NCBI GenBank assembly: GCA_052033375.1
Contig: JBPOJQ010000013.1
Coordinates: 2,255-66,254, forward strand
Length of the DNA stretch: 64,000 nucleotides
Reading direction: 5' to 3'
From: Candidatus Magasanikiibacteriota bacterium
GTDB lineage: Bacteria > Patescibacteriota > Patescibacteriia > Magasanikbacterales > UBA922
Below the pieces are notes generated by a model. The model did no database searches. It saw only the letters and a list, made by a program, of their open reading frames with translations, and was not told the DNA's origin. How positions within the stretch are numbered: the stretch's first letter is position 1; each line of letters starts with the position of its first letter. Shown here in pieces: positions 29,310 to 54,348 of the stretch. Position numbers and translations under genes: made by a program.

Positions 29310-29999
29310 ATGAATAGAAATACTCAGATTGGTATACTCGTTGCAGTTGTTGTTCTTGTAGTGGGTGGATGGTTTGCATACGATATGTATACAACCAAAA
29401 ATACTCCTGTTGTAACTGATCCTAACGGTCAAACTCCTGTAGTTACTCCGACCAATACTGAACCTGGCGATGTTTTAGATTTCTCTAAAAAAATTGCAGA
29501 TATTAGTGCACAGCTGACTGCAAAAGGTGTTACTAATGAATATAAAGAAGTCACTGAATCATTGGATACTGGTAGACGTTTTATGTTTACCTTTGGAGAC
29601 CAGGCACCAGATTACCAGTTATATGTGATGAGTCCTGATTTCGCTCTTGGTGTTGGAGAAGGTGGCCCAACGTCGTTTACTCCTCGTGATATGGATTTTG
29701 CTGCACCTTGGTACGGTATGGTAGATCAATTACAAGAACTTGGATACTACCGCGAACAAAATATTCAAGATTCAAAAAAAGCTGAAATTAATGGAGTGTA
29801 TTTTTATTGGATCTTTGGAGATTTCGGATTTGTGGAACCAGACTTACATGTTCAAGCACTTGCAAATGACAAAGATACTATCGGATACCTACTTCATGTA
29901 AACACCTTTGATCTCGACTACACGGGCAAAGGCATGAAAGCGATTGAAGAAGTAGAGAATAATCCATTTGCACAAAAGATTTTTTCAGTCATCAAATAA
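29310..29999 (+). CDS. Membrane-anchored secreted protein, paralog B (short form)
   Basis: 229 aa. TM segment IGILVAVVVLVVGGWFAYDMY, then T/P linker TPVVTDPNGQTPVVTPTNTEPG. YVMSPDFALGVGEGGPTSFTPRDMDFAA is homologous to the central region of paralog A. Confidence 0.8.
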   Translation: MNRNTQIGILVAVVVLVVGGWFAYDMYTTKNTPVVTDPNGQTPVVTPTNTEPGDVLDFSKKIADISAQLTAKGVTNEYKEVTESLDTGRRFMFTFGDQAPDYQLYVMSPDFALGVGEGGPTSFTPRDMDFAAPWYGMVDQLQELGYYREQNIQDSKKAEINGVYFYWIFGDFGFVEPDLHVQALANDKDTIGYLLHVNTFDLDYTGKGMKAIEEVENNPFAQKIFSVIK

Positions 30000-30027: not shown

Positions 30028-30603
30028 TTATTCTAACATTTTTCTTCGTACCAACAACAGCACCACAAAAGCTCCATTCATGATAATAAGAGAACTCGGG
30101 TATAGCCACGTGGCAAGAGAAAAGGAGTTAAGTGCGATAATTCCAAAAATCCATTTAACACTACTGAACGTATACATAATCGCTGTTTCTTCGTGTGGAT
30201 AGTGATAACCCTTTCGGAAGGTTGGCAAGAAGCCGATTGCGTCAGTAATCGTAATTAATACTACTGACCATGTAGGATCACTGGTAAATTTCCACAGTAA
30301 CATCGATACACATGCAGAGGCTAAACAAAGCCAATCAAACAAACTAAATGTTCGTTTTCCTTTAAATAACGCTAGAAAGAAAATAGTGAAACAAACTAAC
30401 GACGAAAATCCAGTTACCCATGCTCCAGCTCCTGCGTTTTCGGTAACTTGCGCAGCAAATGCGATACCGGTTAGTATTCCCCATACGAGCCAAGAAAATG
30501 CATGCGGTTTTGTCTGATTTTTAATAATATCCCGAAAATATGGAACATAGCCAATGAATGCAAGTATCGTAGCAATATATCCAAATGCAATTTTATAGTC
30601 CAT
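30028..30603 (-). CDS. Polytopic membrane protein with two PQ-loop/MtN3-like repeats (SWEET-like), paralog of 42056..42649
   Basis: 191 aa with 6-7 TM helices. The first repeat is GYVPYFRDIIKNQTKPHAFSWLVWG and the second is GFLPTFRKGYHYPHEETAIMY. Clear similarity to the 42056 gene. Confidence 0.55.
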   Translation of the reverse strand: MDYKIAFGYIATILAFIGYVPYFRDIIKNQTKPHAFSWLVWGILTGIAFAAQVTENAGAGAWVTGFSSLVCFTIFFLALFKGKRTFSLFDWLCLASACVSMLLWKFTSDPTWSVVLITITDAIGFLPTFRKGYHYPHEETAIMYTFSSVKWIFGIIALNSFSLATWLYPSSLIIMNGAFVVLLLVRRKMLE

Positions 30604-36676: not shown

Positions 36677-37302
36677 GAAGAATACCCATTGTTCTTCATT
36701 AGTAAGTATCTCATACTCTTATGCTCCTACAAAAAAATCCGTACCATTTCTGGTACAGATTTTTTTGTTTCATACTACTCCTATAAGCCGAATTTTGTAT
36801 CCCGACATAGTCGGGACGACGATCATTTCTCTAGTCTTACTGTTGCCAGTAAAATCATGAACGAGCTAACTTTTCGAATCCCAAATTGCTTTGGAAAACG
36901 CTGCTCTTTCTTCAGGTAGGGTTTGCCATCAATCTGTCTCGCGACAGAGGAAGTATCGTAGTATTGATACAGATGCATATGCGGACCGATCAATACACCA
37001 ATACACTTTTCACCTTTCATCGCATAGCGATTAGTATAGTCTCTGTGGCACTTTCCCGTCAGAACATTTTGCAATGCCTGAGGTGGGTGTTACCCACTAC
37101 CTTTTTTCTTATCTACTTGGTAGACAAGAGAAGTTCGGACTTTCCTCCCTTCTTCGCTCTTCACTGTGTTCAAGCTTCATACAGACCAGTACTCTCGTAT
37201 TCACAAACATATACGGTGTGTCTGGTGTGGCTCTAAACGTAATGAAGAACGAAGTCAGGCGATCATCCAGAGTAATACGAAACAGTGAGAGAATACCATA
37301 AA

Positions 37303-37407: not shown

Positions 37408-38169
37408 CTAAAACTTTCGCTCTTTTCCGACCACCATATCGATTCTACTCTTTGCGAGCCTGATCGTAATCTTCACCTCTTTCGTTATCTTTCCATCCGC
37501 TTCGACAGAGAATGGTTTTTTACTCGACACAATCATTTCTTCAAATGGAAAGATACTCGGTTCTTCAAATTGTTCTTTCTTAAAAAATCCCCCAGTCACT
37601 ACTGGCCGCAAAAAAGCTTCAAGTTTGTTATCTTGAGGATGTGCGATATAGCGTTTTCCTTTTCCCGTCCAGACAAAAGGTTTCAAATTACATACCACCA
37701 ACTCCATTTTTCCACTCGTGGTGGAAACATTAAAACGTTCATCGTATTGAATCGAAATATTACTTGGTGGAATGTGGAGTTGGGAAATAAAATACCGATT
37801 ATTAATCCAGCCTACATCCAAACGCAGCCGTCTACGGCGAGCAAGTGTATCGCAGGCATCAATTCCAATCGGAATACCCAATACTTCTGCAATGCTATTA
37901 TCTGGGCCTAACGGAATAAATGCAAAAGTAATATCATAAGAGGCCACATATGAAAGCACATGACCAAAGGTAGTATCATTTCCCACAATCACAATCGTCT
38001 TTGCCCCACGACGAATTTCTTCTTGAATCAGTAATTCAGAAGATGAATATTGTTGGAGACGAATAATTTTTCCTGCGATGCCGTAATCAGTGAGACGAGT
38101 TTCGAGTGCTTTAAGCACCGTCTCATATCGCCGGTGCCTCAAAAAGTTGTCGTAGAGATAGACATACAT
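37408..38169 (-). CDS. Diacylglycerol kinase catalytic-domain lipid kinase (YegS/BmrU-like)
   Basis: IVIVGNDTTFGHVLSYV corresponds to GGDGT, and PLGPDNSIAEVLGIP to PLGTGNDFAR. Confidence 0.75.
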   Translation of the reverse strand: MYVYLYDNFLRHRRYETVLKALETRLTDYGIAGKIIRLQQYSSSELLIQEEIRRGAKTIVIVGNDTTFGHVLSYVASYDITFAFIPLGPDNSIAEVLGIPIGIDACDTLARRRRLRLDVGWINNRYFISQLHIPPSNISIQYDERFNVSTTSGKMELVVCNLKPFVWTGKGKRYIAHPQDNKLEAFLRPVVTGGFFKKEQFEEPSIFPFEEMIVSSKKPFSVEADGKITKEVKITIRLAKSRIDMVVGKERKF

Positions 38170-38202
38170 ACCACCAAGTCAACAAGAGTAACTCCTAGTT
38201 TC

Positions 38203-38682
38203 TTACACCATCTCCTCGGTAGTTTCTTCAGGCATCAATTCTATTTTTGATTTGGTTCGAGTAGTCGTTCGTTTTCTTTCTGGACGAATATCTTCGATTT
38301 CAATATCAGTCATGGTCACTTTCCCATGTATAATAGCTCCTGACTCCACTTCGAGTACTCTGCAATAAATATCCCCGAGAACGCGCGCACTTTGTGTCAA
38401 TTCCAATTTTTCTTCTACTCGCATATTACCCTTTACTTCCCCGGCGACGAGGGCATCATTTGCTTTTACATTTGCCAATATTTTTGCGCCTTCTTCAACC
38501 GTCAAAAGTCTCCCTGTCTGCACATTTCCTGATACAGTACCTTTGACTAGGATATTCCCTTCTGAAGAGAAGTCCCCTTCGACTACTACTGACGGACCAA
38601 CGACGGTCTCGATTTCATCAGCTTGAGTACGTATAGTATTCATTGGTTGTGGTGTAGGCATATCTGAAGAACTTTTAAACAT
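38203..38682 (-). CDS. Bactofilin (polymer-forming cytoskeletal protein, DUF583)
   Basis: Repetitive beta-helix pattern VVGPSVVVEGDFSSEGNILVKGTVSGNV...ANDALVAGEVKGNMRVEEKLEL and a charged C-terminal tail are present. Confidence 0.85.
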   Translation of the reverse strand: MFKSSSDMPTPQPMNTIRTQADEIETVVGPSVVVEGDFSSEGNILVKGTVSGNVQTGRLLTVEEGAKILANVKANDALVAGEVKGNMRVEEKLELTQSARVLGDIYCRVLEVESGAIIHGKVTMTDIEIEDIRPERKRTTTRTKSKIELMPEETTEEMV

Positions 38683-38746
38683 AGGTGCACATTAGTGTTA
38701 AGGACGATTGGGGTAGTATATACAATTTTCTACCATTTCGCAAGAA

Positions 38747-40414
38747 TTATACATGTGCCTGCTTCTCAGGAACCCAAAAACCAAATTCACTTCCCTTGCC
38801 CAGACCTGCGCTTTGCGCCCATACATGCCCCCCATGTGCTTCAATAAACATACGACAAACGTAGATTCCAAGACCAGTGCCATTAACATTAGTTCCTTTC
38901 ACATTTTCTCCTCGATAAAATTTTTGGAAGAAATTTGCTTCATCCATATGCCCAAAGCCCACACCCTGATCTTTTACCCGTACATTCACCCCGCCATTTC
39001 CCATTTCTGTCGATACTACGATCTCTTTCCCATCTGTTCCGTATTTTATAGCGTTATCAATAAAGTTAAAAATCACATTTCTAATCTTTTCTGAATCCAT
39101 ATTTACTTTCTGAATCCGCGGTGAAGTATGCATTACAATCGTCAAACCTGCCTCTGCCGCACGTGGCTGCAATTCCTGTACCACATCCTCAACAATAGTA
39201 TTGATATCCATTTTTTCAAAAACATACTTTGTTCTCCCCTGCTCAATACGTGTAATATCTAAAAATTCATCAACCAACTTTACGAGTCGTTCATTACTCA
39301 CATCCATATCATGAAGGACACTTTCCAATTTTTTACTTGGCTTGCCATATGCACCATCCTCAATCAATTCAATATACCCTTTAATAATTGAAAGTGGGGT
39401 TCGCAACTGATGAGATGCGATTGAAAGAAACTCTGTTTTTTGCTGATCGAGTTCTTTTAATCTCACGTTTGCTTTTTCAAGTGAACGTGCGAGCTCAGTC
39501 ATTTCCTCACGACGCCTAACATCACGATGTACTCCAAAAACAAGGAGTATTCCCACAATCGTCGTAAATACTAGAGTAATAATGGTAATAAGTCTTGATA
39601 CTGTGTTTTGTTGTAAAAATATAAGTGCAAATTCGGCAAGCCAAAGTGCGCTTACCAACAATATCGATCCTGCAACCTTAATATTAAATGTTCGAAACCT
39701 TACAATTGTGTAGCCTAAAAACCCAATAAATACAGGCACTGAAAATAACCCAATTTGTGCAAAATTCCAATCTTCAGTAAAGCTACTTACGATATTGCCC
39801 CATGAAAAAGCAAGAAGGAAAAACACGATCCCCGTTGCAAGAAGTACTAATTCTCGACGCTTTTGTTTATCCAGGGTCTGTCTATGCCATTTGATAGCTA
39901 ATACTATCAGAAATATCGTATAAAATAACTCAACAGGATAAGTAGAATAAATAGAAACAGCGCCTTCTATACTAAGACAGCTATCTAAATCAAACCCTGG
40001 CAATGCAAGCGAGGTTGGCAACGTAAGGGCTATAAAAATACATGGTAAAAAGAATAGCAGCTTAGTTCTCAACCTAATCTCTTCTTTTTTAATTAACGTA
40101 TAAAATAAATATAGCCCACCAAGATGTACTAATGGCTCAAAAAGAATTTGTAGGGACCACACAAACATGATTGCATCGCTACTATTAGAAGCCCAAAATA
40201 TAGAATCAAGAAAAACCCAAATAAAGAAAAAAAATAGCGTCAAAAATAAAATAACATTTGGTCTGGAACGTCTATTAGCAAACAATACAAAAAGTCCAAC
40301 TATCAGTGCAACAGCTAGTACGGTGAAATGCGAGTAGTATACTAATGGCGGAACATTTTCAGAAAATAGTAAAAAACTAGGAGTTGGGTACTGACAAAAT
40401 GTTGGTGCTGCCAT
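38747..40414 (-). CDS. Sensor histidine kinase with a polytopic N-terminal membrane domain
   Basis: About 8 TM helices, then HisKA (SHQLRTPLSIIKGY) and HATPase_c (GTGLGIYVCRMFIEAHGG). No cognate response regulator is adjacent. Confidence 0.9.
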   Translation of the reverse strand: MAAPTFCQYPTPSFLLFSENVPPLVYYSHFTVLAVALIVGLFVLFANRRSRPNVILFLTLFFFFIWVFLDSIFWASNSSDAIMFVWSLQILFEPLVHLGGLYLFYTLIKKEEIRLRTKLLFFLPCIFIALTLPTSLALPGFDLDSCLSIEGAVSIYSTYPVELFYTIFLIVLAIKWHRQTLDKQKRRELVLLATGIVFFLLAFSWGNIVSSFTEDWNFAQIGLFSVPVFIGFLGYTIVRFRTFNIKVAGSILLVSALWLAEFALIFLQQNTVSRLITIITLVFTTIVGILLVFGVHRDVRRREEMTELARSLEKANVRLKELDQQKTEFLSIASHQLRTPLSIIKGYIELIEDGAYGKPSKKLESVLHDMDVSNERLVKLVDEFLDITRIEQGRTKYVFEKMDINTIVEDVVQELQPRAAEAGLTIVMHTSPRIQKVNMDSEKIRNVIFNFIDNAIKYGTDGKEIVVSTEMGNGGVNVRVKDQGVGFGHMDEANFFQKFYRGENVKGTNVNGTGLGIYVCRMFIEAHGGHVWAQSAGLGKGSEFGFWVPEKQAHV

Positions 40415-40417
40415 ATA

Positions 40418-40921
40418 TCACGTAAGTTTCTTGAGATATGATGATAGATAAGGAAAATATTTCTTTTTTTCTTTGCTTGTCAATTGTGAAAATGAAGGTA
40501 TTTTTCCACGACATTTTGCAGATCCACATTTGCATGGAATAGTAGCCTCAACCGCTTTTTCAGACCAAGTAAACTCGGTCATATAATATCCATACACTAT
40601 TTCCTCACCTGATTTGATCTCTCGTAAAGCGAACAGTGTTGGGAATCCATTCTCACGTGTCTTGACATAACAATTCGGTTCACATGAATGGTTCCAATAC
40701 TTTCCAGTCCATTTCGATGGAATGATGTGCGTTTTCAGTCCTATTTGTATTGAAAAATTTGAGGTTTGCTGATCAGATAACTTACCATACCCATGTGATA
40801 CCACTTCACCAGGCATTATATTTTTTAAAGCAAAAATAGCAAAACCATACCCTTTCGGACTTCGTCCACATCTAACTATTTTTTTATTTTCCCTGCTAAC
40901 GCTAGCCAACGCTTCTTTCAT
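40418..40921 (-). CDS. SET-domain protein (putative protein-lysine N-methyltransferase)
   Basis: NHSCEPNC and EIVYGY are SET motifs. The post-SET Cys cluster is CKCGSAKCRG. It ends 4 nt upstream of the histidine kinase gene. Confidence 0.8.
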   Translation of the reverse strand: MKEALASVSRENKKIVRCGRSPKGYGFAIFALKNIMPGEVVSHGYGKLSDQQTSNFSIQIGLKTHIIPSKWTGKYWNHSCEPNCYVKTRENGFPTLFALREIKSGEEIVYGYYMTEFTWSEKAVEATIPCKCGSAKCRGKIPSFSQLTSKEKKKYFPYLSSYLKKLT

Positions 40922-41212
40922 ATTTTTATTTATTTTTTGTTAAATCATCATTCCCTAGTCACTGTAACAACTACTTATCCGCCAGATTCTACCGCATTTG
41001 AACCCACCCCCTCACTAGAAGTCACATAATAGTCATGTCGAATATAGATTCTATAGTAGACTAAAGCTACAATAACAAACAAAAAAATAAACAAATATAA
41101 AATAAAATTTTTACTAGAAGACTCTTCGAATTTATTCTGTTCCATATACTATGCAAGGGATTATACATTTATTTTCTAAAAAATAAAAGTATTTAAACTT
41201 TCACACGTTCAC

Positions 41213-42046
41213 TTATTTTTCAAAATAAGCTTTAAAATTTTTATAACCTGTTCCAAATTTATATTTTACATGAATTCTGACTACATCATTTTTTTGAACA
41301 GAACGTTCCTCTAAAGGAATAATTACTGGTGCATTAAGCGCTTTAGTGTCTTCCACTGTCTTAGTACCTAGAATTGATTTACTCTCCAAAAGAATACTAT
41401 TAATTTTTCCTTTTTTTACTACCTTAAATTCAACAACCACATCACACTGTTCTTTATATGGATGTGAAAAATCAATCTTATTCAACAATTCTTTTTTTGC
41501 CATCTTACTTTTAATTGGATTATACTCCAGCCATTTCCATAAATGATTTACCATAGGAAATAAGTGCCCACAAACTTCAAAAGATGTGTCTACAGGTGTA
41601 ATGTATGTCTCTTGCACCCCTGGAATAAAAATTGTGCTTTTGTGTATATTCTTATGTCTATGTAGATTATTTATTGCCTGCACTTGATGTTCATCAACTA
41701 TTCCCGTGGTTAACATTTCAGAAATAACGATATCAAATTTTTCCTTTAAAGAAATTTTTTTTGCGTCATTTACAATCATTTTAATCTTATTCTTTAACCC
41801 ATTCACCTCAATATTCTTCTTCGCAATGCTCGCAATAAAAGGATCGTACTCTACGCAATACACTTGTTTTGCTCCAGCTTTAGCTGCAGCAATTGCCATA
41901 ATACCTGAACCAGTTCCTAAGTCTATTACCACACTTTCTTTCGTGACGACTTTATTAATAGCATCAACAAAGGCAGTGGTCCTCTTGCTATCTACAAGAC
42001 ATTGGAAAACAAAATCTACTGAACTAAATGCTTTATCTTCTGACAT
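41213..42046 (-). CDS. PRMT-like class I SAM-dependent methyltransferase (protein arginine N-methyltransferase fold)
   Basis: Motif I VVIDLGTGSGIMAIAAAKAGAKQVYCVE. FDIVISEMLTTGIVDE is a double-E loop. HLWKW is a THW-like loop. Order and spacing follow the PRMT core. Confidence 0.6.
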   Translation of the reverse strand: MSEDKAFSSVDFVFQCLVDSKRTTAFVDAINKVVTKESVVIDLGTGSGIMAIAAAKAGAKQVYCVEYDPFIASIAKKNIEVNGLKNKIKMIVNDAKKISLKEKFDIVISEMLTTGIVDEHQVQAINNLHRHKNIHKSTIFIPGVQETYITPVDTSFEVCGHLFPMVNHLWKWLEYNPIKSKMAKKELLNKIDFSHPYKEQCDVVVEFKVVKKGKINSILLESKSILGTKTVEDTKALNAPVIIPLEERSVQKNDVVRIHVKYKFGTGYKNFKAYFEK

Positions 42047-42055
42047 ACTGTTATT

Positions 42056-42649
42056 TTATTTTTTAATAAATGCTCTATTTTTATAAAACTTTCCCATTAC
42101 TAACGATAATAGTATAACTAGGTTTCCAAAAAACATATATATAGGGTAAACACTTAGTTCAAAGGACCATGACGCCAGTGCAAATATATTTATTAAACTA
42201 CCCAAAACTATAAGTAACCAAGATAATAAAAACTCTTCATGGGGCTTTTGAAGTGCATGTCGAACTGTAGGAAAAACACCACATACATCAATTAATAGAC
42301 TAAAGAGTAATGCGTTAACGGGGTTTTTTGTTACAAGCCATAAAATTATCCCTGCAACTGCGCCAATCATGCACATTTTATCTAACACATTCCATTTAAT
42401 ATATCCCGATCTTATTGAAAATGCCACAATCAACAAATCCTGTATTACATACACTAAAGGTACCCAAATCGTTGTTCGCGCTCCTGACTCATAGTAGCTT
42501 ACTAGAACTAGTGTATTTACAGAGGTCCAGATAATCCAAGACGCTATATTTGGTTTAATTTTTTTTTGAAAAACCAAATAAATATAAGGCAAAAATGCTA
42601 CTAATGAGACTAGTCCAGCAATTTGCCCTAAGATTATCTGTAAATTCAT
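42056..42649 (-). CDS. Polytopic membrane protein with two PQ-loop/MtN3-like repeats, paralog of 30028..30603
   Basis: AFLPYIYLVFQKKIKPNIASWIIW and GVFPTVRHALQKPHEEFLLSW align with the 30028 gene. Confidence 0.55.
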   Translation of the reverse strand: MNLQIILGQIAGLVSLVAFLPYIYLVFQKKIKPNIASWIIWTSVNTLVLVSYYESGARTTIWVPLVYVIQDLLIVAFSIRSGYIKWNVLDKMCMIGAVAGIILWLVTKNPVNALLFSLLIDVCGVFPTVRHALQKPHEEFLLSWLLIVLGSLINIFALASWSFELSVYPIYMFFGNLVILLSLVMGKFYKNRAFIKK

Positions 42650-42684
42650 AACTATTTTTTACAAAAAAATAACCATTGCATTGG

Positions 42685-43167
42685 TTATTTTTTTAGACGG
42701 TACCACACCACACTTCCAAACATGGTTGTCGACATTGCAGCCGAGAGCATACAATACGGGCAGACCGTGTATAGGATAAATAGTTGTAGGTAGACAAGAT
42801 AGAGACTGGTCAAAAATCCAAATGTAATGATTCCCTGCAATAGATGCCAGAGACGTATATTACGCACCCGATGAAGTTGGAATACAGTAATGCCGATAAC
42901 GGTATAGTACAATAATCCAAGATACGCGAGAGGAATACCCAATACTTCAGAATATATGCTCTGGAGAACAATATTACAGCTCCCCGGTGATCCTACGATG
43001 CAATTGATTGTACCATCCCCCCCAAACGTACCAATCATATGTTCAATTGAGAGATACAATGCGTCGAGGAATCCAATCCCAGCACATATGATGATTATAC
43101 GAAATAACCAGGTAGGTACTCGCGCCTCACGGACATCAGTAATTAATTGTTTTAGTATAGAAAACAT
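42685..43167 (-). CDS. Vitamin K epoxide reductase (VKOR) family protein
   Basis: Four TMs. Loop Cys pair CIVGSPGSC and active-site CPYC are present. Confidence 0.8.
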   Translation of the reverse strand: MFSILKQLITDVREARVPTWLFRIIIICAGIGFLDALYLSIEHMIGTFGGDGTINCIVGSPGSCNIVLQSIYSEVLGIPLAYLGLLYYTVIGITVFQLHRVRNIRLWHLLQGIITFGFLTSLYLVYLQLFILYTVCPYCMLSAAMSTTMFGSVVWYRLKK

Positions 43168-43175
43168 ATGATATA

Positions 43176-44894
43176 TTACATGTGTTCAACTGTTGTGATA
43201 CCTAAAAGGTCAAACCCACGCTCCATAGTATGAACCACTCTCTCGATAAGTGCAAGCCTGAATTCTTGTGTTGGTTCCGAAGCATTCAACACAGGACATT
43301 CATGATAAAAATGATTCGCGCTTTGTGATAATTCAAATAAATATTGGGCGATATACGACGGATCTCGTTTTTCCACAGCGAGACGTAGCGCAGCATCAAA
43401 TTCGCCGAGACACAATATGAGCTCACGTTCAGCTGATTCCATTACATCTGGAATATATAATTCTCGCCCATGCGATGCGGGTGCACGTTTGGACAAAATA
43501 CTTTTGAATCGAGCGACGATATAGAGAAGATACGGGCCACTGTCTCCTGAAGTGGAGATGGATTCTTGCATATCAAATACAATATCATTTACTCTCCCGG
43601 TTTTGAGAAATGCATATTTCACTGCACCCATAGAGACTCTTTCAACCGTTTCTGCTTTTTCTTCTTTCGACAATTTTGCTTTGATCTCACTTGTCTCCAT
43701 GTGTTCACGGATACTTTCTTTTACTTCTCCAATTAAATCCTCTGCAGTGACCACATTTCCAGTTCGCGAACTCATTTTTCCACCTTTAAGTGTGACCCAG
43801 CCATACGGTAAATGAAATTCTTTTCCCGTGCTTTCTGGAAGCGTTGATTCAAGTGCTTTAAATACTACTTTGAGATAATCTGCTTGTTCAGGACCAATTA
43901 CATGATAAATTGCATCTGGATTGAATTCAGAAAAATGTTTTTCAGCGAGCGCCAAATCTTTTGCTTCATATACCGGAAAACCTTTACTGTTCAAAAACAC
44001 CCGGTCATGCAAATCATGATCACTGCCTTTGAATATGACTGCTCCCTGACTTTTTTCAAATATCCCCTCTTTCAAACCGTCTCCTACGATTTCAACCGCT
44101 CTCTCAAACATTTCTGATTCAAAATAATATCGATCAAATGTGATATCGAGTGAGTTGTAAATACTCTCTAAGTATTCAAGACTCCATGAACGAGTGGTCT
44201 CATACACTTCTTTGATTGCATCATTTCTTTCATACACCATCTCATTGTATTTTTTTACTTCTTCTTGCACGCTTTCACTTTTTTCAAATTCAGTTGCTCC
44301 GTATGCATATACTTTGCCAATAAATTTCATTCGCTCTGACAATGGAGCTTCTTTAATTGCTTCATAATCACTCTTCATTTTTTCAATCCCCCAAAGACAT
44401 TTTGCAATATGCATTCCTACATCCCCTCCGTAGGTCGTACGGATGACTCGATAGCCCGCATATTCATGAAGACGGACTAGCGACTCACCAAGAATTGCAT
44501 TGCGAAGATGTCCGATATGAAAAGCCTTATGAGTATTGGCACAAATAAATTCAATAATAATTGTTCCTTTTGAATCAGAAACTGCCGGTTGTATATGGTT
44601 TTGAAGATTTAGAATAATCTGCGCCAATTCTTTGTCATTGAGAAAAAAATTGACATATGGACCAAATGCTTCTGCCCGTTCTACGAGCACATCTTCAGTT
44701 TCTATATTGAATTTTTCCGCGAGTAGTTTTGCCGCTTCTACGGGCGACATCTTATTCTCTTTTGCATACTGAAAAACAGGAAACGCCACATCTCCCATTT
44801 CTTTTTTTGGCGGAGTAGTAAGGATAATACCTGCTTCACCGATACCAATAGCTTCAAGAAGACCCCCAATGTGGTCTCGAACGTATCGAATCAT
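43176..44894 (-). CDS. argS: Arginine--tRNA ligase
   Basis: Class I HIGH-type motif AFHIGHLRNAILGE. The C-terminal DALR-type anticodon-binding region is present. Length 572 aa. Confidence 0.9.
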   Translation of the reverse strand: MIRYVRDHIGGLLEAIGIGEAGIILTTPPKKEMGDVAFPVFQYAKENKMSPVEAAKLLAEKFNIETEDVLVERAEAFGPYVNFFLNDKELAQIILNLQNHIQPAVSDSKGTIIIEFICANTHKAFHIGHLRNAILGESLVRLHEYAGYRVIRTTYGGDVGMHIAKCLWGIEKMKSDYEAIKEAPLSERMKFIGKVYAYGATEFEKSESVQEEVKKYNEMVYERNDAIKEVYETTRSWSLEYLESIYNSLDITFDRYYFESEMFERAVEIVGDGLKEGIFEKSQGAVIFKGSDHDLHDRVFLNSKGFPVYEAKDLALAEKHFSEFNPDAIYHVIGPEQADYLKVVFKALESTLPESTGKEFHLPYGWVTLKGGKMSSRTGNVVTAEDLIGEVKESIREHMETSEIKAKLSKEEKAETVERVSMGAVKYAFLKTGRVNDIVFDMQESISTSGDSGPYLLYIVARFKSILSKRAPASHGRELYIPDVMESAERELILCLGEFDAALRLAVEKRDPSYIAQYLFELSQSANHFYHECPVLNASEPTQEFRLALIERVVHTMERGFDLLGITTVEHM

Positions 44895-46522: not shown

Positions 46523-49500
46523 TTACTCCGTTAATGATCCCAATTGATTGCGCAATGCCTCTAACTTTTGTCTGCTCTCCTCAAGTTTTTGTTGCTCTTT
46601 TTCCACCACTGCTCGCGGTGCATTTTTTACAAACTCTGTATTCGATAGTTTCTTTTCCATCTGAATCACATAAGGCTCTACGTTTGCAATCTCTTTTTCA
46701 ATTCTCACTTTTTCCTTTTTCATATCAACTGCACTACTCAAATCTATTTCTACTTCCACACCAGACTCAGTAAACGAAATTCCCTTTTCAAGTTTTTCGG
46801 CTGCAATTTTTTCGAGTCCTGCTAATCGAATTAACACTGGCGTATATTCTTTGAGTAATGTACTCATGCTCTCTACTCTTATGTTTGCAGTTATTTTCTT
46901 TGCTGGTTCCACTTTGTACTCAGTACGAATTGAACGAATTTTGGTAATAATATTTCGGAGCGTAGTATCAATGAATACAATATTATTATTCTCCTTCTTA
47001 CCTTTACCTAGCTTTGGATATTCTTCTACCATAAGTGGCGTGTCCCCGTATATCTCTTGCCATACTTGTTCTGTCACAAAGGGCATAAACGGATGCCAGA
47101 GTTTGAGAATCGTATTCAAAATATAATTCAAAATATTACTCTTCTCACCTTCTACTTTTGCAATTTCTAAATACCAATCAGCAAGTTCTCCCCAGGTAAA
47201 GTCTCGCAGTGTTTCACCTGCAATGGAAAATTGATATGAATCAAATGACTTACCCACCTGAGTAACTACGGTATGCAATTTCCATAAAATCCATTCATCT
47301 GCAGCAGTCTGTGCTTTTGGTTCTGTAATATCTTTCGCAGGTGTATCAATATTCAACAACATGAACCGGCTAATATTCCAAAGCTTATTGGTAAAATTAC
47401 GGAAACCTGCAATTTTTTCTTCTGACAATCGCATATCATTCCCTGGCGTCCCGCCAATGAGAAGCGATAGACGTGTCGCATCAGTCCCATATTTCTTGAT
47501 CATGTCCAACGGATCAATAATATTTCCGAGAGACTTACTCATCTTTCTTCCTTCTTCATCACGCACCAGTCCATGAAGATACACGGTTTTAAATGGAACT
47601 TCACCAAGGGCGTATGTACTCATAAGAATCATACGGGCAACCCAGAAAAAGAGAATATCGTATCCTGTTTCCAAAACTGAAGTGGGATGGAACACTTCTA
47701 TATCAGTCGATAATGAATTATCCGCAGCGTACACTCGAGTATCTGCCGTGGCCCTCTGTTGTATGGTGTCCCAGCTCTTTCCTGTAAGCGACGTACCGAA
47801 TTGTTTTAGAACTTCGAGCGTATCTCCATGAGATACAATTGCGATACGTTTTCCTCGATTTTTTTGCAATATTTCTAACAAAAAAGAATGTGTCCGTTCA
47901 CGCAAATCCACGTATGATTCCATCCCATAGGGTGTTTCAATCATCCATTCATGTTGGTCCCTCATTTTGTCAAACTCCTCTTCACTTCTACTATTGAACT
48001 CGCCCACACCCACTTCTCGAAGTCGAATATCTTCAATAACAGGAACTCCTAATTTTTTTGAGAGGATTTCGGCTGTCTCATGTGTACGCACAATTGGAGA
48101 TGCGTAGATAATATCCGGCTTTTTTTTCGATAATTTTTTGCTCAATTCCTCCACTTGTTTTCTCCCAACCTTGGTGAGGTGATATGAATTCGTATCTGAC
48201 ACATCGCTCACTACCCCTGCCACATTATTCTCTGCTTCTCCGTGACGAATAAACTGGATTTCAGTCGTAGGCCACCCAAGTGTAGAAAATGTCCACGAAC
48301 CTGAGGAAAACCAGGTATCGAGTGTATCTGAATCTTGAGTCCAACCTTTTCCTTCAGGTTTTGTTCCAACCACAGTCTCTTCACCTTTGTACCACACAGG
48401 AATTTGATGCCCATACCAAATCTGCCGACTGATATTCCAATCACGCAGATTATCAATCCAATGAAAGTATGTTTTATCGAATCGTTCAGGGATAATTTTA
48501 ATATCCCCAGTCTTGACTACGGTTTGCATCAATTGTTTCAAAGTAACCAATTGTCCTTTATTAATTGTCTTTAATCTTGAATCCTTAATCTTAAATTTTT
48601 TATTCACATCAATAAACCACTGGGTTTTTGGCAATGGCTCAACAATATCTCCAAACCGATCACTGGTCCCAACATTCTGAATTGTGTCTTCAGTTTTCTC
48701 AAGAAGTTTTTGCTTTTCAAGCCATGCAACTAACTTCTTTCGAGCTTCTTCAATCGTCAGCCCGGCAAAAGATTCACCTGCATTAGTAGTCATTTTTCCA
48801 TCCTCACCAATCACCTGAATCAGTCCAATATCTTTATTTTTCTGATAGATTTCAAAATCAGTCTGACTGTGTGCCGGAGTGACTCCGAGCGCTCCAGTAC
48901 CAAATGTGTCATCGACTCCAGCGTCTCCAATTACTTGCAATTTCAATGTATGTCCGGTTTGACCGAAGTTTTTTATAACAAAAGTTTTTCCAATATATTT
49001 TTTCCATTTTCCTTTTGGGTTGACTGCAATCGCTGTATCTCCGAGCTTGGTTTCTGGACGAGTCGTTGCGATAGTTATCGGACATTCTGGCCCGTATGTA
49101 AAATAATATAATTTTCCTGGACGCTCGACATACACGAGTTCATCATCACTGCACGTTGATTGACCTTTAACAGACCAATTAATCACGCGGTACCCTCGAT
49201 AAATAAGCCCGTCATCATACATCATTTTGAATATGGTGTTTACGGCCACATTTCGTGGATTATCTAGAGTAAATGCTTCACGCGACCAATCGAGCGATGC
49301 GCCCATTTTTTTCGCTTGATTTACAATCGTATCATGCGACTCACGTGCAAATTTTTCTACGTGTTTCAAAAATTTTTCACGCCCCAGCTCTGCTTTTGGT
49401 TTTTTCATTCCACCATCAATCAACATTTTTTCTACTTTTGACTCAGTTGCGACTGCTGCATGATCGGTTCCTGGAATCCAGAGGGTTTTGTCACCCTTCA

Positions 49501-49738
49501 TCCGATGATAGCGCGCCATCACATCCTGCACTGCGAGCATGACCGCATGACCCATATGGAGGGTTCCAGTCACATTTGGAGGAGGCAATACCATACTAAA
49601 AGACTCTCTCTTCGTATCATCCTTGATCCACTCTGGAGTGCTCTCAGGCGCAAAAAAACCGCCTTTTTCCCAGCGTTTGTAGATCTTATCCTCGTATATA
49701 TGAGGTTCGTAAGCTTTGGGTAATTCTCGAGGGGGCAT
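46523..49738 (-). CDS. valS: Valine--tRNA ligase carrying an inserted histidine-phosphatase (phosphoglycerate-mutase-like) domain
   Basis: HIGH (HMGHAV) and KMSKS are present. A C-terminal coiled-coil is present. A 192-aa insertion between ...FSTLGWP and FHPTSVLETGYDILFFW contains RHGEAENN and SHGDT. Confidence 0.9.
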   Translation of the reverse strand: MPPRELPKAYEPHIYEDKIYKRWEKGGFFAPESTPEWIKDDTKRESFSMVLPPPNVTGTLHMGHAVMLAVQDVMARYHRMKGDKTLWIPGTDHAAVATESKVEKMLIDGGMKKPKAELGREKFLKHVEKFARESHDTIVNQAKKMGASLDWSREAFTLDNPRNVAVNTIFKMMYDDGLIYRGYRVINWSVKGQSTCSDDELVYVERPGKLYYFTYGPECPITIATTRPETKLGDTAIAVNPKGKWKKYIGKTFVIKNFGQTGHTLKLQVIGDAGVDDTFGTGALGVTPAHSQTDFEIYQKNKDIGLIQVIGEDGKMTTNAGESFAGLTIEEARKKLVAWLEKQKLLEKTEDTIQNVGTSDRFGDIVEPLPKTQWFIDVNKKFKIKDSRLKTINKGQLVTLKQLMQTVVKTGDIKIIPERFDKTYFHWIDNLRDWNISRQIWYGHQIPVWYKGEETVVGTKPEGKGWTQDSDTLDTWFSSGSWTFSTLGWPTTEIQFIRHGEAENNVAGVVSDVSDTNSYHLTKVGRKQVEELSKKLSKKKPDIIYASPIVRTHETAEILSKKLGVPVIEDIRLREVGVGEFNSRSEEEFDKMRDQHEWMIETPYGMESYVDLRERTHSFLLEILQKNRGKRIAIVSHGDTLEVLKQFGTSLTGKSWDTIQQRATADTRVYAADNSLSTDIEVFHPTSVLETGYDILFFWVARMILMSTYALGEVPFKTVYLHGLVRDEEGRKMSKSLGNIIDPLDMIKKYGTDATRLSLLIGGTPGNDMRLSEEKIAGFRNFTNKLWNISRFMLLNIDTPAKDITEPKAQTAADEWILWKLHTVVTQVGKSFDSYQFSIAGETLRDFTWGELADWYLEIAKVEGEKSNILNYILNTILKLWHPFMPFVTEQVWQEIYGDTPLMVEEYPKLGKGKKENNNIVFIDTTLRNIITKIRSIRTEYKVEPAKKITANIRVESMSTLLKEYTPVLIRLAGLEKIAAEKLEKGISFTESGVEVEIDLSSAVDMKKEKVRIEKEIANVEPYVIQMEKKLSNTEFVKNAPRAVVEKEQQKLEESRQKLEALRNQLGSLTE

Positions 49739-51152: not shown

Positions 51153-52730
51153 TTATATCAAACTTCTCCCCGTCATCTCAGGCGGTTGTTCGATGCCAAG
51201 AATGGAGAGCATCGTAGGGGCCACATCTGATAAAATTCCAACCGGATGCATCAAGCTCAAATCCCCTTCTGGAGGATCGCCTGTCGGACCTGCCTTACCT
51301 CGAAATTCATTACCAATAATCAGGAATGGTACAGGATTATTACTGTGCTCTTTATCCTGTTCACCTGTTTTCAAATTAATTACTTCTTCAGCATTTCCAT
51401 GATCGGCGGTAATCAATAACACCCCACCTTTTGCCTCTACGTATTCAGCTATTTTACCCAAACTACGATCAATCGTCTCACAGCCTACGATAGTCGCCTC
51501 AAGATTCCCCGTGTGTCCTACCATATCTGCATTCGCAAAATTGACCAAAATCACGTCATACGTATCAGACTCAATTGCAGCGATAACTTTCTTAGTCACT
51601 TCAGACGCGGACATTTCTGGTGCTTTATCATACGAGGACACATTGGGGGATGGAATGATTGCACGCTCTTCACCCTTAAACGGCTCCTCGACAGTACCAT
51701 TGAGAAAAAAAGTAATATGCGCATATTTTTCAGTTTCTGCTGCATGAAACTGCGTGAGTCCTGCTTTACTTATCACCTCAGCAAGACAATTATGCACCAC
51801 AATTGGCGGATATGCTACCACGACCGGAATTTCTTTTTCATATTCAGTCATAGTGACAAATAACAAATCGGTCACATACTCACGCTTAAATTTATCAAAT
51901 CCCGGCAATACAAATGCCTTGGTCAACTGTCGTGCACGATCAGGACGGAAATTAAAGAAAATTACGGCATCACCTTTTTCAATTTGTGCGGTAGGCTTGC
52001 CTTCTTTCCCAATCACAGTTGGAATAAACTCTTCATCATATACTTGTTTTTCATATGAGGCAGCAATTGCATCGACAGGATCCGTACTGTACGTTTCAGA
52101 AATTCCTTCAGCCATCGCTCGATATGCGCGTTCAATTCTATCCCATCGATTATCGCGATCCATCGCATAATATCGACCAGCGAGAGAAGCAATTTGTCCC
52201 ACTCCAATTTTCTTCATTTTTTCCTCAAGTTTGAGAACAAAATCTGTCGCACTATTGTAGAGCGTGTCTCGTCCATCGAGAATAACATGTACAAAGACTT
52301 TTTTTATTTTGTTTTTCTTTGCAAATTCTAACAGCGCGTACAAGTGATCTTGGCTTGCATGTACATTACCAGGACTTACCAATCCAATGAGGTGCAGTGC
52401 AGATTTGTGAGTCAAGACATGTTCTTTTGCAGAAAGAAATGCTTTGTTCTGAAAAAATGTACCGTCCACAATTGTTTTATTGATTCGAGGAAATGTCTGA
52501 TAATATACACGTCCTGCACCGATATTCAAATGCCCTACTTCGGAATTTCCCATTTCACCATACGAAAGTCCAACCTCATTTCCAGAAGCATATAACGACA
52601 TTGCAGGGTATTCTTCGATAAAACGATCCATGTGCGGAGTGTTTGCACGATAGACCGCATTCCCCTCACTCGGAGGCGCGACTCCCCACCCATCAAGAAT
52701 TGCGAGTACAACAGGTTTTGGCCTTGGCAT
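51153..52730 (-). CDS. gpmI: 2,3-bisphosphoglycerate-independent phosphoglycerate mutase (copy 1)
   Basis: N-terminus ILDGWG. SEVGHLNIGAGR matches the iPGM metal-binding and Ser-phosphatase motifs. Length 525 aa. Confidence 0.9.
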   Translation of the reverse strand: MPRPKPVVLAILDGWGVAPPSEGNAVYRANTPHMDRFIEEYPAMSLYASGNEVGLSYGEMGNSEVGHLNIGAGRVYYQTFPRINKTIVDGTFFQNKAFLSAKEHVLTHKSALHLIGLVSPGNVHASQDHLYALLEFAKKNKIKKVFVHVILDGRDTLYNSATDFVLKLEEKMKKIGVGQIASLAGRYYAMDRDNRWDRIERAYRAMAEGISETYSTDPVDAIAASYEKQVYDEEFIPTVIGKEGKPTAQIEKGDAVIFFNFRPDRARQLTKAFVLPGFDKFKREYVTDLLFVTMTEYEKEIPVVVAYPPIVVHNCLAEVISKAGLTQFHAAETEKYAHITFFLNGTVEEPFKGEERAIIPSPNVSSYDKAPEMSASEVTKKVIAAIESDTYDVILVNFANADMVGHTGNLEATIVGCETIDRSLGKIAEYVEAKGGVLLITADHGNAEEVINLKTGEQDKEHSNNPVPFLIIGNEFRGKAGPTGDPPEGDLSLMHPVGILSDVAPTMLSILGIEQPPEMTGRSLI

Positions 52731-52737
52731 AGTAAAA

Positions 52738-54348
52738 TTAAAACAAAGATTTCCCAGTCATATCTTTCGGCTGTGTACCACCTACCATCTTTATTATCGT
52801 AGGCGCAACATCAGCGAGTATACCATCTTTTAATCTAATCCCTTTGGTACTATTTCTAATCAATATACAGGGCACCGGATTCAAACTGTGTTCAGTATCA
52901 ACTTCCCCAGTCTCAATGTTTTTCATTTCTTCAGCATTTCCATGATCAGCGACAATCAACACTTGTCCATCACGCGAGAGCACCTCTTCAACAATTTTTT
53001 CCACACAGTCATCGACAACAGACACGGCAATTTTTGCTGCTTTGAAATTCCCGGTATGACCTACCATGTCCGCATTTGCAAAATTGATACAATAAAAATC
53101 ATACGCCTGTTTTTTTATCAATTTTATTACCGTATTCGTTATTTTCCCTGCAGCCATTTCGGGCTTGGTATCATGATGTGCGACAGTTGTTGATTCTATT
53201 TTCATTCGATCTTCCCCATTTACAGGATCAGAGTACCCGCCGTTGATAAAATACGTCACGTGGGCATATTTTTCTGACTCAGCAATATAGAGCTGGGTCA
53301 TATGTGCCAAGGTGAGTGGTAATGTATTGTATACATCGGGCGACGGAAATGCAGTCAAAATTTTTTCCAGATCGGGACCAAAATCAGTCAAAGCGACAAA
53401 CCTAATATTTTTGGGAACCTTGGTACGCCTAAAAGAACGTGGATTTTTCTGATTAAAATCATCCTGTACAAAAGCCTTGGTAATTTGTCTGGCGCGATCA
53501 GATCGAGCATTGAAAAAAATAATAACATCTGTATCTTCAATAGTGCCTACGGGTTTTCCATAATCGTCGACTATGACTGAAGGTGAGATAAATTCGTCAG
53601 TCTCTCCTCGATTATACGCCTGTTCAATCGCCTCTTCTGCATTTTTTACCTGATGTCCTCGCCCGAGAGTCATCGCTTCATATGCAGCTTGGGTTCGATC
53701 CCATATTTTATTTCGATCCATGCCATAGAGTCTCCCCATAATTGTGGCTATTTTTTCGGTATGGAGCATGTGTCCTCGCAGTTGGTGCAAGAACGTCGAT
53801 GCGGCATGCGGACCCGAATCTCGTCCATCAGTAAAGAGGTGCAGGTATACTTTATCAATACCCTCTCTCCGACATAATTCCAACAATGCATAGACATGTT
53901 CTGGATAGGAATGAGCGCTATTCTCATCAGTGAGCAACCCCATCAGATGTACGGCTGAATTGTATTTTTTTGTATGGAATAATGCTTGCCTAAATGCTTC
54001 ATTTTTGAAAAAAGTTCCATCATGAATAGTATCTGAAATAGAAACCAAATCTTGTTTTACAATTCTTCCAGCACCAATATTCAAATGTCCTGCTTCAGAA
54101 TTTCCAATTTGACCAGAGAATAACCCCACGTGTTCACCGTAGGTTTTGAGCTTTGACCATGGATATTTTTTGAGATATCCGAATATATGAGGTGCAGTAT
54201 GCGAAGTGATTGCATTACCCTCACGATCTTCGGGCGCCAAACCAAAGCCATCAAGAATAATAAGCGCCGTTGGAGCATGCATGTGCTGGGTAGATTGTTG
54301 TTTTCCTTTTGTTTTTTGCTTGAGTGACATACTACGTTCAAATTTCAA
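52738..54348 (-). CDS. gpmI: 2,3-bisphosphoglycerate-independent phosphoglycerate mutase (copy 2, tandem paralog)
   Basis: ILDGFG and SEAGHLNIGAGR are present, over a full-length 536 aa. Confidence 0.88.
   Translation of the reverse strand: MKFERSMSLKQKTKGKQQSTQHMHAPTALIILDGFGLAPEDREGNAITSHTAPHIFGYLKKYPWSKLKTYGEHVGLFSGQIGNSEAGHLNIGAGRIVKQDLVSISDTIHDGTFFKNEAFRQALFHTKKYNSAVHLMGLLTDENSAHSYPEHVYALLELCRREGIDKVYLHLFTDGRDSGPHAASTFLHQLRGHMLHTEKIATIMGRLYGMDRNKIWDRTQAAYEAMTLGRGHQVKNAEEAIEQAYNRGETDEFISPSVIVDDYGKPVGTIEDTDVIIFFNARSDRARQITKAFVQDDFNQKNPRSFRRTKVPKNIRFVALTDFGPDLEKILTAFPSPDVYNTLPLTLAHMTQLYIAESEKYAHVTYFINGGYSDPVNGEDRMKIESTTVAHHDTKPEMAAGKITNTVIKLIKKQAYDFYCINFANADMVGHTGNFKAAKIAVSVVDDCVEKIVEEVLSRDGQVLIVADHGNAEEMKNIETGEVDTEHSLNPVPCILIRNSTKGIRLKDGILADVAPTIIKMVGGTQPKDMTGKSLF

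Follow-up and report, generated by a model that had tools for sequence, protein, structure and literature searches.

A 64,000-nucleotide stretch of DNA from a Candidatus Magasanikiibacteriota bacterium (GenBank assembly GCA_052033375.1, contig JBPOJQ010000013.1, positions 2,255 to 66,254), referred to here as the window, carries on its minus strand, at 41213..42046, a gene for a methyltransferase (MT) of 277 amino acids (aa). Judging from its sequence and its modeled structure, MT is a predicted cytoplasmic S-adenosylmethionine (SAM)-dependent N-methyltransferase with the fold of the protein arginine methyltransferases (PRMTs), lacking their dimerization arm, and is not the ribosomal protein L11 methyltransferase PrmA. 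It belongs to a prokaryotic family and is not a recent import from eukaryotes. Together with a seven-transmembrane (7-TM) membrane protein, MT and/or a SET-domain methyltransferase form a cassette immediately upstream of one sensor histidine kinase in many bacteria of the candidate phyla radiation (CPR), and this cassette is undescribed. We tentatively favor, with a probability of roughly 40%, a small guanidino-amine as the substrate, with methylation coupled to transport, over the methylation of protein arginines within the kinase module.

Fold prediction for MT

The open reading frame (ORF) is uninterrupted, and the sequence stretches cited in the original prediction of a PRMT homolog are all present in its product (VIDLGTGSGIMAIAAAKAGAKQVYCVE, residues 40 to 66; FDIVISEMLTTGIVDE, residues 104 to 119; HLWKW, residues 168 to 172). 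That prediction was upheld for the fold and the catalytic motifs, the top PDB sequence matches and the top Foldseek matches being PRMTs throughout. When MT was compared with all PDB sequences by phmmer, PRMT7 (E value of 1.6e-15), PRMT6 (1.9e-14), and CARM1 (1.8e-13) ranked first, and the sole PrmA among the matches had an E value of 4.6e-8. A profile of 42 MT homologs gave E values of 1.3e-23 to 3e-12 against the PDB, with PRMTs occupying all of the best 60 places. By these scores, the resemblance to PRMTs goes far beyond chance.

An AlphaFold2 model computed from the 42-sequence alignment had a mean predicted local distance difference test (pLDDT) score of 92.9 and a predicted template modeling (pTM) score of 0.89. 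In a Foldseek search of the PDB with this model, TbPRMT7 led (E value, 9e-22; query TM-score [TMq], 0.80), followed by PRMT3, CARM1, PRMT1, PRMT2, and metazoan PRMT7. TMq values were 0.70 to 0.80 for PRMT7, PRMT3, CARM1, and PRMT1. The top 50 matches were solely PRMTs, and neither PrmA nor a generic small-molecule methyltransferase emerged as the best structural match. With about 300 columns, the alignments take in the Rossmann domain as well as the C-terminal beta-barrel, for which the model has nine strands beyond residue 144. Amino acid identity to PRMTs in the structural alignments is 17 to 19%. The MT sequence has no hydrophobic stretch at its N terminus.

PrmA is the top Pfam name for MT (7.6e-20), TRM5/TYW2 also matches (3e-12), JGI labels MT homologs as "predicted RNA methylase," and one NCBI record is labeled as an L11 methyltransferase. 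The Pfam PrmA match covers the Rossmann core only, aligning residues 23 to 117 of MT with profile positions 148 to 240 of 296. The NCBIfam model for prmA, TIGR00406, gave 65.9 bits against a cutoff of 183.15, and the PrmA equivalog models as a set (TIGR00406 and four others) gave 46 to 66 bits against cutoffs of 183 to 327, all of which places MT outside the PrmA equivalog family.

Conserved motifs and missing PRMT hallmarks

Residue conservation was counted over the alignment of the 42 homologs, and all coordinates for MT motifs are on the minus strand. The N-terminal lid segment (residues 6 to 26; 41969..42031) contains the motifs AFSSvD and CLvDskRTtaF, in which F7, S8, S9, C16, and D19 are invariant and R22 and F26 are at least 90% conserved. 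In the helix alignment with PRMT7 and PRMT8, this AFSSxD...CLxDxxRTxxF segment matches the PRMT lid helix MLxDxxRTxxY, and the window copy, CLVDSKRTTAF, has the PRMT-core pattern. SAM motif I and the post-I acidic residue (residues 39 to 66, VVIDLGTGSG...VYCVE; 41849..41932) are likewise recognizable in the family alignment and in the alignment with PRMT6, PRMT7, and PRMT8, with G44, G46, and S47 of the VIDLGTGSG motif and the post-I glutamate E66 invariant.

The double-E loop proposed in the original prediction (residues 104 to 119; 41690..41737) was borne out by sequence. E110 and E119 lie 9 residues apart, are invariant in the 42 homologs, and align with the SEwMg..l..E segment of PRMT6, PRMT7, and PRMT8. 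The corresponding pair in PRMT1 is E144/E153, also 9 residues apart, and in PRMTs the pair clamps the guanidinium group. The assignment in MT is made by sequence, local confidence of the model being lower here (pLDDT of 69 at residues 111 to 120). A divergent sister subfamily retains the double-E pair (SENIYTGMFFEK).

One proposed motif did not survive. HLWKW (41531..41545) had been taken for a THW-like loop in PRMT order and spacing, but it is in the wrong position, about 50 residues past the double-E loop, whereas the THW of PRMT1 lies about 140 residues beyond that loop. When TbPRMT7 is aligned with the family profile, HLWKW comes directly after the first barrel strand, at the start of the dimerization arm. 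It is a family-specific motif (W170 invariant, H168 at least 90% conserved) within the short segment that replaces the arm. The THW tripeptide is absent from the MT sequence. Its positional equivalent is probably DTKALNAP (residues 233 to 240; 41327..41350), which precedes the third-last strand, at residues 241 to 250, and in which T234 and N238 are invariant and D233, L237, and P240 are at least 90% conserved. The counterpart reads TxFLNN in the divergent sister subfamily and SxWFNxP in a subfamily fused to a winged helix-turn-helix (wHTH) domain. A profile of the MT barrel (residues 176 to 277) had no PDB match at an E value of ≤10, and the phmmer alignment of a wHTH-fused relative ended at the first barrel strand.

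The dimerization arm, required for activity in canonical PRMTs, is missing from MT. There is no helix-turn-helix in the model at residues 155 to 177, and TbPRMT7, when aligned to the MT profile, has about 20 additional residues at the arm position. Members of the MT family are about 280 aa in length, compared with about 320 aa or more for PRMT cores.

Size and spread of the MT family

A word-indexed search returned 142 MT homologs, mostly of 276 to 305 aa, and those with organism names came from metagenome-assembled genomes (MAGs) of Magasanikbacteria and Parcubacteria. An exhaustive hidden Markov model (HMM) search found 288 MT-family representatives (clusters at 50% identity) at an E value of ≤1e-30 and 5963 at ≤1e-10. 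For a prokaryotic family of at least 288 clusters with so little identity to PRMTs, the term "eukaryote-like" that had been applied to MT is not supported. Gene neighborhoods were analyzed for 43 MT loci obtained by scanning one genome per GTDB species. As labeled, these loci are mostly from Patescibacteria (Paceibacterota, Magasanikbacteria, Nomurabacteria, Moranbacteria, and Saccharibacteria). The others are from several Acidobacteriota/Blastocatellia, one of them on an 890-kb contig, and from single MAGs labeled Bacillota and Coxiellaceae.

A membrane protein, a SET protein, and a sensor kinase encoded next to MT

Upstream of MT is a gene (42056..42649, minus strand) for a 197-aa 7-TM membrane protein of an unnamed family, the stop codon of which is 9 nucleotides (nt) ahead of the MT start. 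The protein has no Pfam match, even at E values of ≤10, and no NCBIfam match, and a word-indexed search with it returned 28 proteins, all of them unnamed. Its model (pLDDT of 91.9) has seven helices, and the N- and C-terminal triplets align with one another (HHalign, 93%; E value, 2.9e-7), indicating an internal duplication of three transmembrane (TM) helices and the 3+1+3 arrangement of PQ-loop, SWEET, and KDEL receptor proteins. The best PDB folds were those of cystinosin, the KDEL receptor, and SWEET13, with TMq values of 0.5 to 0.6 and weak E values of 0.02 to 0.2. The repeats read LPY... and FPT..., not PQ, which sets the protein apart from the PQ-loop/MtN3 family at the sequence level.

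The 7-TM family, including distant members detected by HMM, is represented within two genes of MT in about 17 of the 43 loci, and EamA-like proteins take its place in others. The two proteins are also found fused. Fusions of 465 aa with the order TM-MT fall into at least five clusters at 90% identity, and single ORFs were confirmed in three separate genomes. The N-terminal half of these fusions is 40% identical to the 7-TM protein of the window (E value of 8e-42), and an invariant FSS motif follows about 5 residues past the last TM helix. By the positive-inside rule, the C terminus of the 7-TM protein would be cytoplasmic, and a fused MT would therefore sit in the cytoplasm at the face of the membrane. 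The window has a second paralog of the 7-TM family (191 aa; 30028..30603, minus strand), which stands alone about 12 kb from MT, beside an unannotated gene for a 235-aa protein and a gene resembling those for phosphoenolpyruvate-utilizing enzymes.

On the downstream side of MT, the SET gene that the original prediction had placed nearby is at 40418..40921 (minus strand). It encodes a 167-aa SET-domain methyltransferase (Pfam SET, PF00856; E value, 1.4e-11; 45.2 bits against a cutoff of 22.4) with the motifs NHSCEPN and GEEIVYGY and a C-x-C-x4-C post-SET element (CKCGSAKC). Its PDB matches include the MLL1 SET/post-SET region (2e-10) and BurB (PDB 9l4t; 2.9e-5), the latter over residues 23 to 147, which is nearly full length. 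The spacer between MT and SET measures 291 nt, has a guanine-plus-cytosine (GC) content of 28%, and holds an ORF of uncertain status (40975..41145, minus strand) for 56 aa with one hydrophobic helix and no Pfam match. That ORF is not conserved, a tblastn search of the 43 loci giving a single weak match.

The functional link that had been suggested between the two methyltransferases gained support, since their adjacency recurs in separate MT lineages and in Acidobacteriota and one SET-MT fusion exists. The genes are adjacent in the window, in loci L012 and L018, and in Acidobacteriota loci L004, L006, and L010. The MTs of these loci are 41 to 50% identical to one another, and the adjacency is therefore no accident of one lineage. 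The fusion, P0213 (472 aa), is a single example, and the gene order on its contig is SET, SET-MT, EamA. Its SET half aligns with the SET protein of the window over the full length, with 27% identity and an E value of 2e-12.

The start of the kinase gene (38747..40414, minus strand) lies 3 nt past the SET stop codon. The 555-aa product consists of a multi-TM N-terminal domain of about 300 aa followed by HisKA and HATPase_c domains, as assigned by Pfam. HisKA_7TM is a weak match in the kinase family, found in 9 of 21 members. The kinase, rather than SET, is the most constant neighbor of MT, full-length homologs of it being encoded downstream in 33 of the 43 loci and directly downstream in 27, where the kinase start is within 30 nt of the MT stop codon or overlaps it (26 loci by ORF calling and L029 by tblastn). 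SET intervenes, as in the window, in two loci, and one to three other genes intervene in four. The remaining 10 loci, which have no kinase, are from Acidobacteriota, end with the contig, or contain a distant match.

The same question was approached from the kinase, using its TM domain as the seed. This gave 80 metagenomic loci, 45 of which had at least 2.5 kb of upstream sequence, and in those 45 an upstream gene was counted if it lay within 250 nt. The gene directly upstream encoded a SET protein in 21 loci, an EamA-like membrane protein in 11, a PRMT-like enzyme in 6, a deoxyhypusine-synthase-like protein in 2, the 7-TM protein in 1, and something else in 4. Some minus-strand "SET" matches from jackhmmer look like spurious antisense ORFs and were left out. 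The six PRMT-like enzymes include a divergent second subfamily of 293 to 338 aa with motif I, CxxDxxRT, and the double-E pair. A conserved kinase is preceded by a variable slot with interchangeable occupants, namely membrane proteins (7-TM, EamA-like, or from a 180-aa TM family) and an optional SET and/or PRMT-like enzyme. Genes of the AdoMetDC and deoxyhypusine synthase families often lie further upstream, flanking this slot. In the window, the 7-TM and MT genes have a GC content of 32%, against 39 to 42% for flanking genes, with values of 36.5% for SET and 37.4% for the kinase; the low GC content of the first two genes fits a mobile cassette.

No terminator-like site was found within 38000..43400. 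A tblastn search with an E. coli CheY query found no response regulator in the 64-kb window and one in the 43 loci. Among 66 nonredundant kinases, no alignment column convincingly held arginine with MT and lysine with SET, or an arginine or lysine specific to the presence of either enzyme, as might mark a methyl acceptor, and the best candidate column (position 78 of the window kinase) is also arginine in kinases accompanied by neither enzyme.

Two other identities for the module were considered and rejected. A precursor peptide or Agr-like peptide system does not fit gaps of less than 30 nt between MT and the kinase in most loci, nor the lack of conservation of the 56-aa ORF. Membership in a known anti-phage defense system was not supported by PADLOC, which returned only generic Rossmann (mad2, residues 34 to 131) and HATPase matches for the module, and none for SET or the 7-TM protein. 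As a separate observation, the kinase family, in the window and in loci L005 to L126, has a conserved N-terminal motif, CPWE..(x)..FSSNVPxLLYYSH, the window copy of which is FCQYPTPSFLLFSENVPPLVYYSH. The family also has two invariant cysteines, C7 and C146, and acidic residues in the membrane domain, of which E93 is invariant and E150 and E162 are nearly so.

Fusions and neighbors in the wider family

Elsewhere in the family, MT relatives are joined to other enzymes, and two metagenome contigs, L045 and L046, have a different operon. In L045 (6001..9242), a fusion of pyruvoyl-dependent arginine decarboxylase to MT (P0231) is followed by LPG_synthase_C and GNAT. In L046 (4908..7911), a pyruvoyl-dependent arginine decarboxylase (PvlArgDC) gene is followed by a gene for 200 aa and then by an MT-LPG_synthase_C fusion (P0216). 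These two operons look like an undescribed pathway derived from arginine or agmatine. LPG_synthase_C (Pfam, 7.9e-22) also adjoins MT in the Patescibacteria loci L001 and L023 and lies within about two genes of it in the Patescibacteria loci L034 and L038. In one CPR clade (L013, L014, L026, and L033; 63 to 80% identical), a gene of the L-arginine:glycine amidinotransferase family is directly upstream of MT; its products match PDB 1jdw with an E value of about 1e-101, as well as SxtG and HsvA.

The other fusions join MT to a radical-SAM-like region (P0167 and P0173), to a CxxCxxCC segment (P0186), to a second MT in tandem (P0176), or to a wHTH domain (P0218, P0237, P0242, P0254, and P0264). The proteins of the last group have an N-terminal extension of about 100 to 150 residues and keep the double-E pair, with SxWFNxP at the THW-like position. 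The extension of P0264 matches winged-helix DNA-binding domains of the TrmB/RPC82 type (Pfam E value of about 6e-5), and P0237 and P0254 have no HTH match listed.

Proposed function and alternatives

A small cationic substrate is favored because two unrelated families of transporter-type membrane proteins precede MT or are joined to it in one chain, because MT also forms a fusion with an enzyme whose substrate is free arginine, because it neighbors an amidinotransferase that makes guanidino compounds, and because precedents exist. In streptozotocin biosynthesis, free L-arginine is N-methylated at its guanidino group by SznE/StzE (PMC11705231). The N-methylagmatine units of saskemycin have been proposed to originate from methylarginine (PMC12637814). 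BurB, a SET-domain methionine S-methyltransferase, methylates free methionine (PMC12542666), and SET enzymes can therefore act on free amino acids. In the pathway we envisage, MT would dock on the transporter-like 7-TM protein from the cytoplasmic side, and in some genomes the two are joined by a linker of a few residues. E110 and E119 would clamp the guanidinium group of a small arginine-derived cation, which may be free arginine, agmatine, or an amidinated amine, and SAM would supply the methyl group. SET, where present, would add a methyl group to the amine end of this cation or of a relative of it. The membrane protein would move either the substrate or the product, and the kinase may be a co-located sensor. 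Agmatine-type molecules have a lysine-like butylamine end and an arginine-like guanidinium end, which would account for the association of a SET with a PRMT-like enzyme.

Several points weigh against a small guanidino-amine. The characterized enzymes matched by the whole MT model are protein arginine methyltransferases without exception, and the steadiest neighbor is a kinase, in a slot shared with SET, normally a protein lysine methyltransferase, so that a protein substrate would be simpler. The fold match of the 7-TM protein is statistically weak, as its E values indicate. The links to the decarboxylase, the amidinotransferase, and LPG_synthase_C come from other clades or from one CPR lineage. 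In the 64-kb window, tblastn with neighbors of the AdoMetDC, amidinotransferase, LPG_synthase_C, and deoxyhypusine synthase families found no match, and those window ORFs that were searched against Pfam included no PvlArgDC. The AdoMetDC and deoxyhypusine synthase flanks may be plain inherited synteny, and the compactness of CPR genomes makes short intergenic gaps weak evidence for an operon. In all of this, the fold, the conserved catalytic motifs, the fusions, and the gene neighborhoods are shown, and the substrate class, the topology, the direction of transport, and any role of the kinase are inferred.

A protein substrate is a real possibility, if in our judgment a less probable one. MT, alone or with SET, would then be a protein arginine methyltransferase that methylates a protein of its own module, either the kinase or the 7-TM/EamA partner, and tunes signaling in the manner of CheR. 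The PRMT fold is present at full length, with the barrel, which shapes the peptide cleft. The tie to the kinase in the MT-seeded loci speaks for this, as does the finding that two divergent PRMT-like subfamilies each occur directly upstream of a kinase, in the slot that is occupied by SET in 21 of the 45 kinase-seeded loci and by a PRMT-like enzyme in 6. The SET-MT fusion, the lack of a nearby response regulator, and the lack of a terminator-like site within the module can also be counted in its favor, and there is a two-component precedent in the reported methylation of PhoP by CheR (PMC8546571). Against a protein substrate stand the lack of an arginine or lysine column in the kinase conserved specifically with MT or SET, the many kinases that have neither enzyme, with only an EamA-like protein upstream in 11 of the 45 loci, and the occurrence of MT, SET, and EamA genes without a kinase in Acidobacteriota and L044. 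The missing dimerization arm, needed in canonical PRMTs, argues in the same direction, and the fusions to arginine decarboxylase and LPG_synthase_C point elsewhere. A more specific version is a little more doubtful still. In it, methylation of arginine and/or lysine would control the CPR sensor kinase, and a membrane-tethered PRMT-fold enzyme and a SET enzyme, as interchangeable accessory genes of one kinase, would mark the kinase or its 7-TM co-sensor.

Methylation of lipid head groups at the inner leaflet seems improbable to us. Here MT would methylate the arginine side chain of arginyl-phosphatidylglycerol and SET the lysine side chain of lysyl-phosphatidylglycerol, or both would act on phosphatidylethanolamine, with the 7-TM or EamA protein as a flippase and the kinase as a sensor of membrane charge. 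LPG_synthase_C, the catalytic domain of MprF, is encoded near MT in L001, L023, L034, L038, and L045 and is fused to it in L046, the TM-MT fusions tether MT a few residues from a TM helix, and downstream the window encodes a DAGK-type lipid kinase and an LCAT-like hydrolase. However, the LPG_synthase_C link is rare (4 of the 43 MT-seeded loci and none of the 45 kinase-seeded loci), the window itself has no LPG_synthase_C gene, and no SET or PRMT-fold enzyme that acts on lipids is known to us. That MT is an ordinary PrmA, or a generic or RNA methyltransferase whose likeness to PRMTs is limited to the Rossmann fold, is largely refuted. The Pfam and database names, and the aminoacyl-tRNA synthetase genes nearby, would suit such an enzyme, but the Pfam coverage is partial, the NCBIfam score is far below the cutoff, the PDB match to PrmA is weaker by far than that to PRMT7, the likeness to PRMTs extends to the barrel and the N-terminal lid, and an acidic double-E pocket is unsuited to RNA. 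Least probable of all is host mimicry, which the original prediction had raised; here, a symbiont would secrete a eukaryote-derived PRMT and SET pair that imitates chromatin modifiers of its host. PRMT and SET folds are best known from eukaryotes, and intracellular pathogens have SET effectors such as NUE of Chlamydia (PMC2904774). MT is, however, a member of a large prokaryotic family, is armless and distant from PRMTs, has no hydrophobic N terminus, and is fused in relatives to a membrane protein at the end predicted to be cytoplasmic; it is set beside a kinase and housekeeping genes, and its carriers are mostly Patescibacteria MAGs, along with those of Blastocatellia.

What the system would mean depends on which of these readings is correct. 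A small guanidino-amine substrate would imply that organisms of very limited metabolism have an unrecognized pathway of methylation. With a protein substrate, the module would represent a new post-translational control of two-component signaling, with PRMT and SET folds paired in bacteria, and if that protein is the kinase or its 7-TM co-sensor, it would be a CheR-like adaptation layer made from two folds that eukaryotes use on chromatin. In either case, the family offers a minimal, possibly monomeric scaffold for studying the PRMT fold without its dimerization arm.

Other features of the window

The window resembles a CPR genome in its compact minus-strand genes, which include aminoacyl-tRNA synthetase and glycolysis genes. 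The valyl-tRNA synthetase (1071 aa; 46523..49738, minus strand) contains a complete histidine phosphatase domain (PGAM-like, His_Phos_1; residues 496 to 669; E value of 1.3e-35), which is inserted inside the class I catalytic domain. Two cofactor-independent phosphoglycerate mutase paralogs are encoded in tandem (51153..52730 and 52738..54348, both minus strand) beside enolase, PGK, and GAPDH genes. An RNase P RNA (class A, 115.7 bits) is located at 36768..37192 (minus strand), and the plus-strand ORFs listed there are therefore spurious. At the low-coordinate end, an ORF of more than 2547 aa (1..7644, minus strand) runs out of the window and has no Pfam domain at E values of ≤1e-5. On the plus strand, 24921..26525 and 29310..29999 encode paralogs with an N-terminal TM or signal-like helix that share the block Y.I/L.VMSPDF..G.GEG.PT.FTP; the region between 22 and 28 kb is a low-GC stretch of 34 to 37%.

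Comparison with known systems

PRMTs are treated as essentially eukaryotic enzymes, and to our knowledge their bacterial relatives appear in print only in comparative-genomics surveys of operons for secondary metabolites. The searchable literature yielded no account of PRMT-like enzymes, or of an armless PRMT-fold family, in Patescibacteria, of such an enzyme joined to SET or a 7-TM protein, of any connection between PRMT-like enzymes and histidine kinases, or of alternating SET and PRMT-like enzymes in a cassette anchored by a kinase. The family described here is compact and armless and retains the guanidinium clamp. Its members are widespread among Patescibacteria, with others in Acidobacteriota, and are coupled to membrane proteins by fusion and to SET and the kinase genetically.

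With the eukaryotic enzymes (PRMT7, PRMT1/8, PRMT6, CARM1, and PRMT3), MT shares the Rossmann domain and beta-barrel, the lid motif xLxDxxRTxxF/Y, motif I, the post-I glutamate, and an identical spacing of the double-E pair. It differs from them in lacking the dimerization arm, in being about 40 to 60 residues shorter, in its low identity, in having the family-specific DTxALNAP and HLWxW motifs in place of the THW tripeptide, and in its prokaryotic, membrane-linked genomic setting. PrmA, the top Pfam name for MT, has the same class I Rossmann core, but MT is without the N-terminal substrate domain of PrmA and below its NCBIfam cutoffs, and PrmA has neither the PRMT-type barrel nor the double-E loop.

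The arrangement around the kinase recalls CheR with its chemoreceptors and transporter/kinase co-sensing pairs such as BceAB-BceS and DctA-DcuS, in which the membrane sensor governing a kinase has a methyltransferase or a transporter encoded alongside and acting on or together with it. CheR, however, is a glutamate O-methyltransferase of a different architecture, and the module lacks a chemoreceptor, CheB, and a response regulator, as well as any arginine or lysine covariation in the kinase. The SET protein of the window resembles BurB in being a small, stand-alone bacterial SET protein with a nearly full-length match, although the similarity is low and it is closer to SET/post-SET regions of the MLL type.

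The nearest parallels on the bacterial side are the PRMT-related "peptide methylases" of secondary-metabolite operons described by Aravind and colleagues (PMC3417536), along with SznE/StzE. Unlike these, the CPR subfamily is found in a kinase-linked membrane cassette with no recognizable biosynthetic cluster. SznE presumably has the PRMT fold. All of these enzymes would be prokaryotic relatives of the PRMTs with nonhistone substrates, either small molecules or peptides, and parts of the MT family share with them a setting of arginine-derived chemistry, among amidinotransferase, decarboxylase, and acyl- or aminoacyl-transferase genes.

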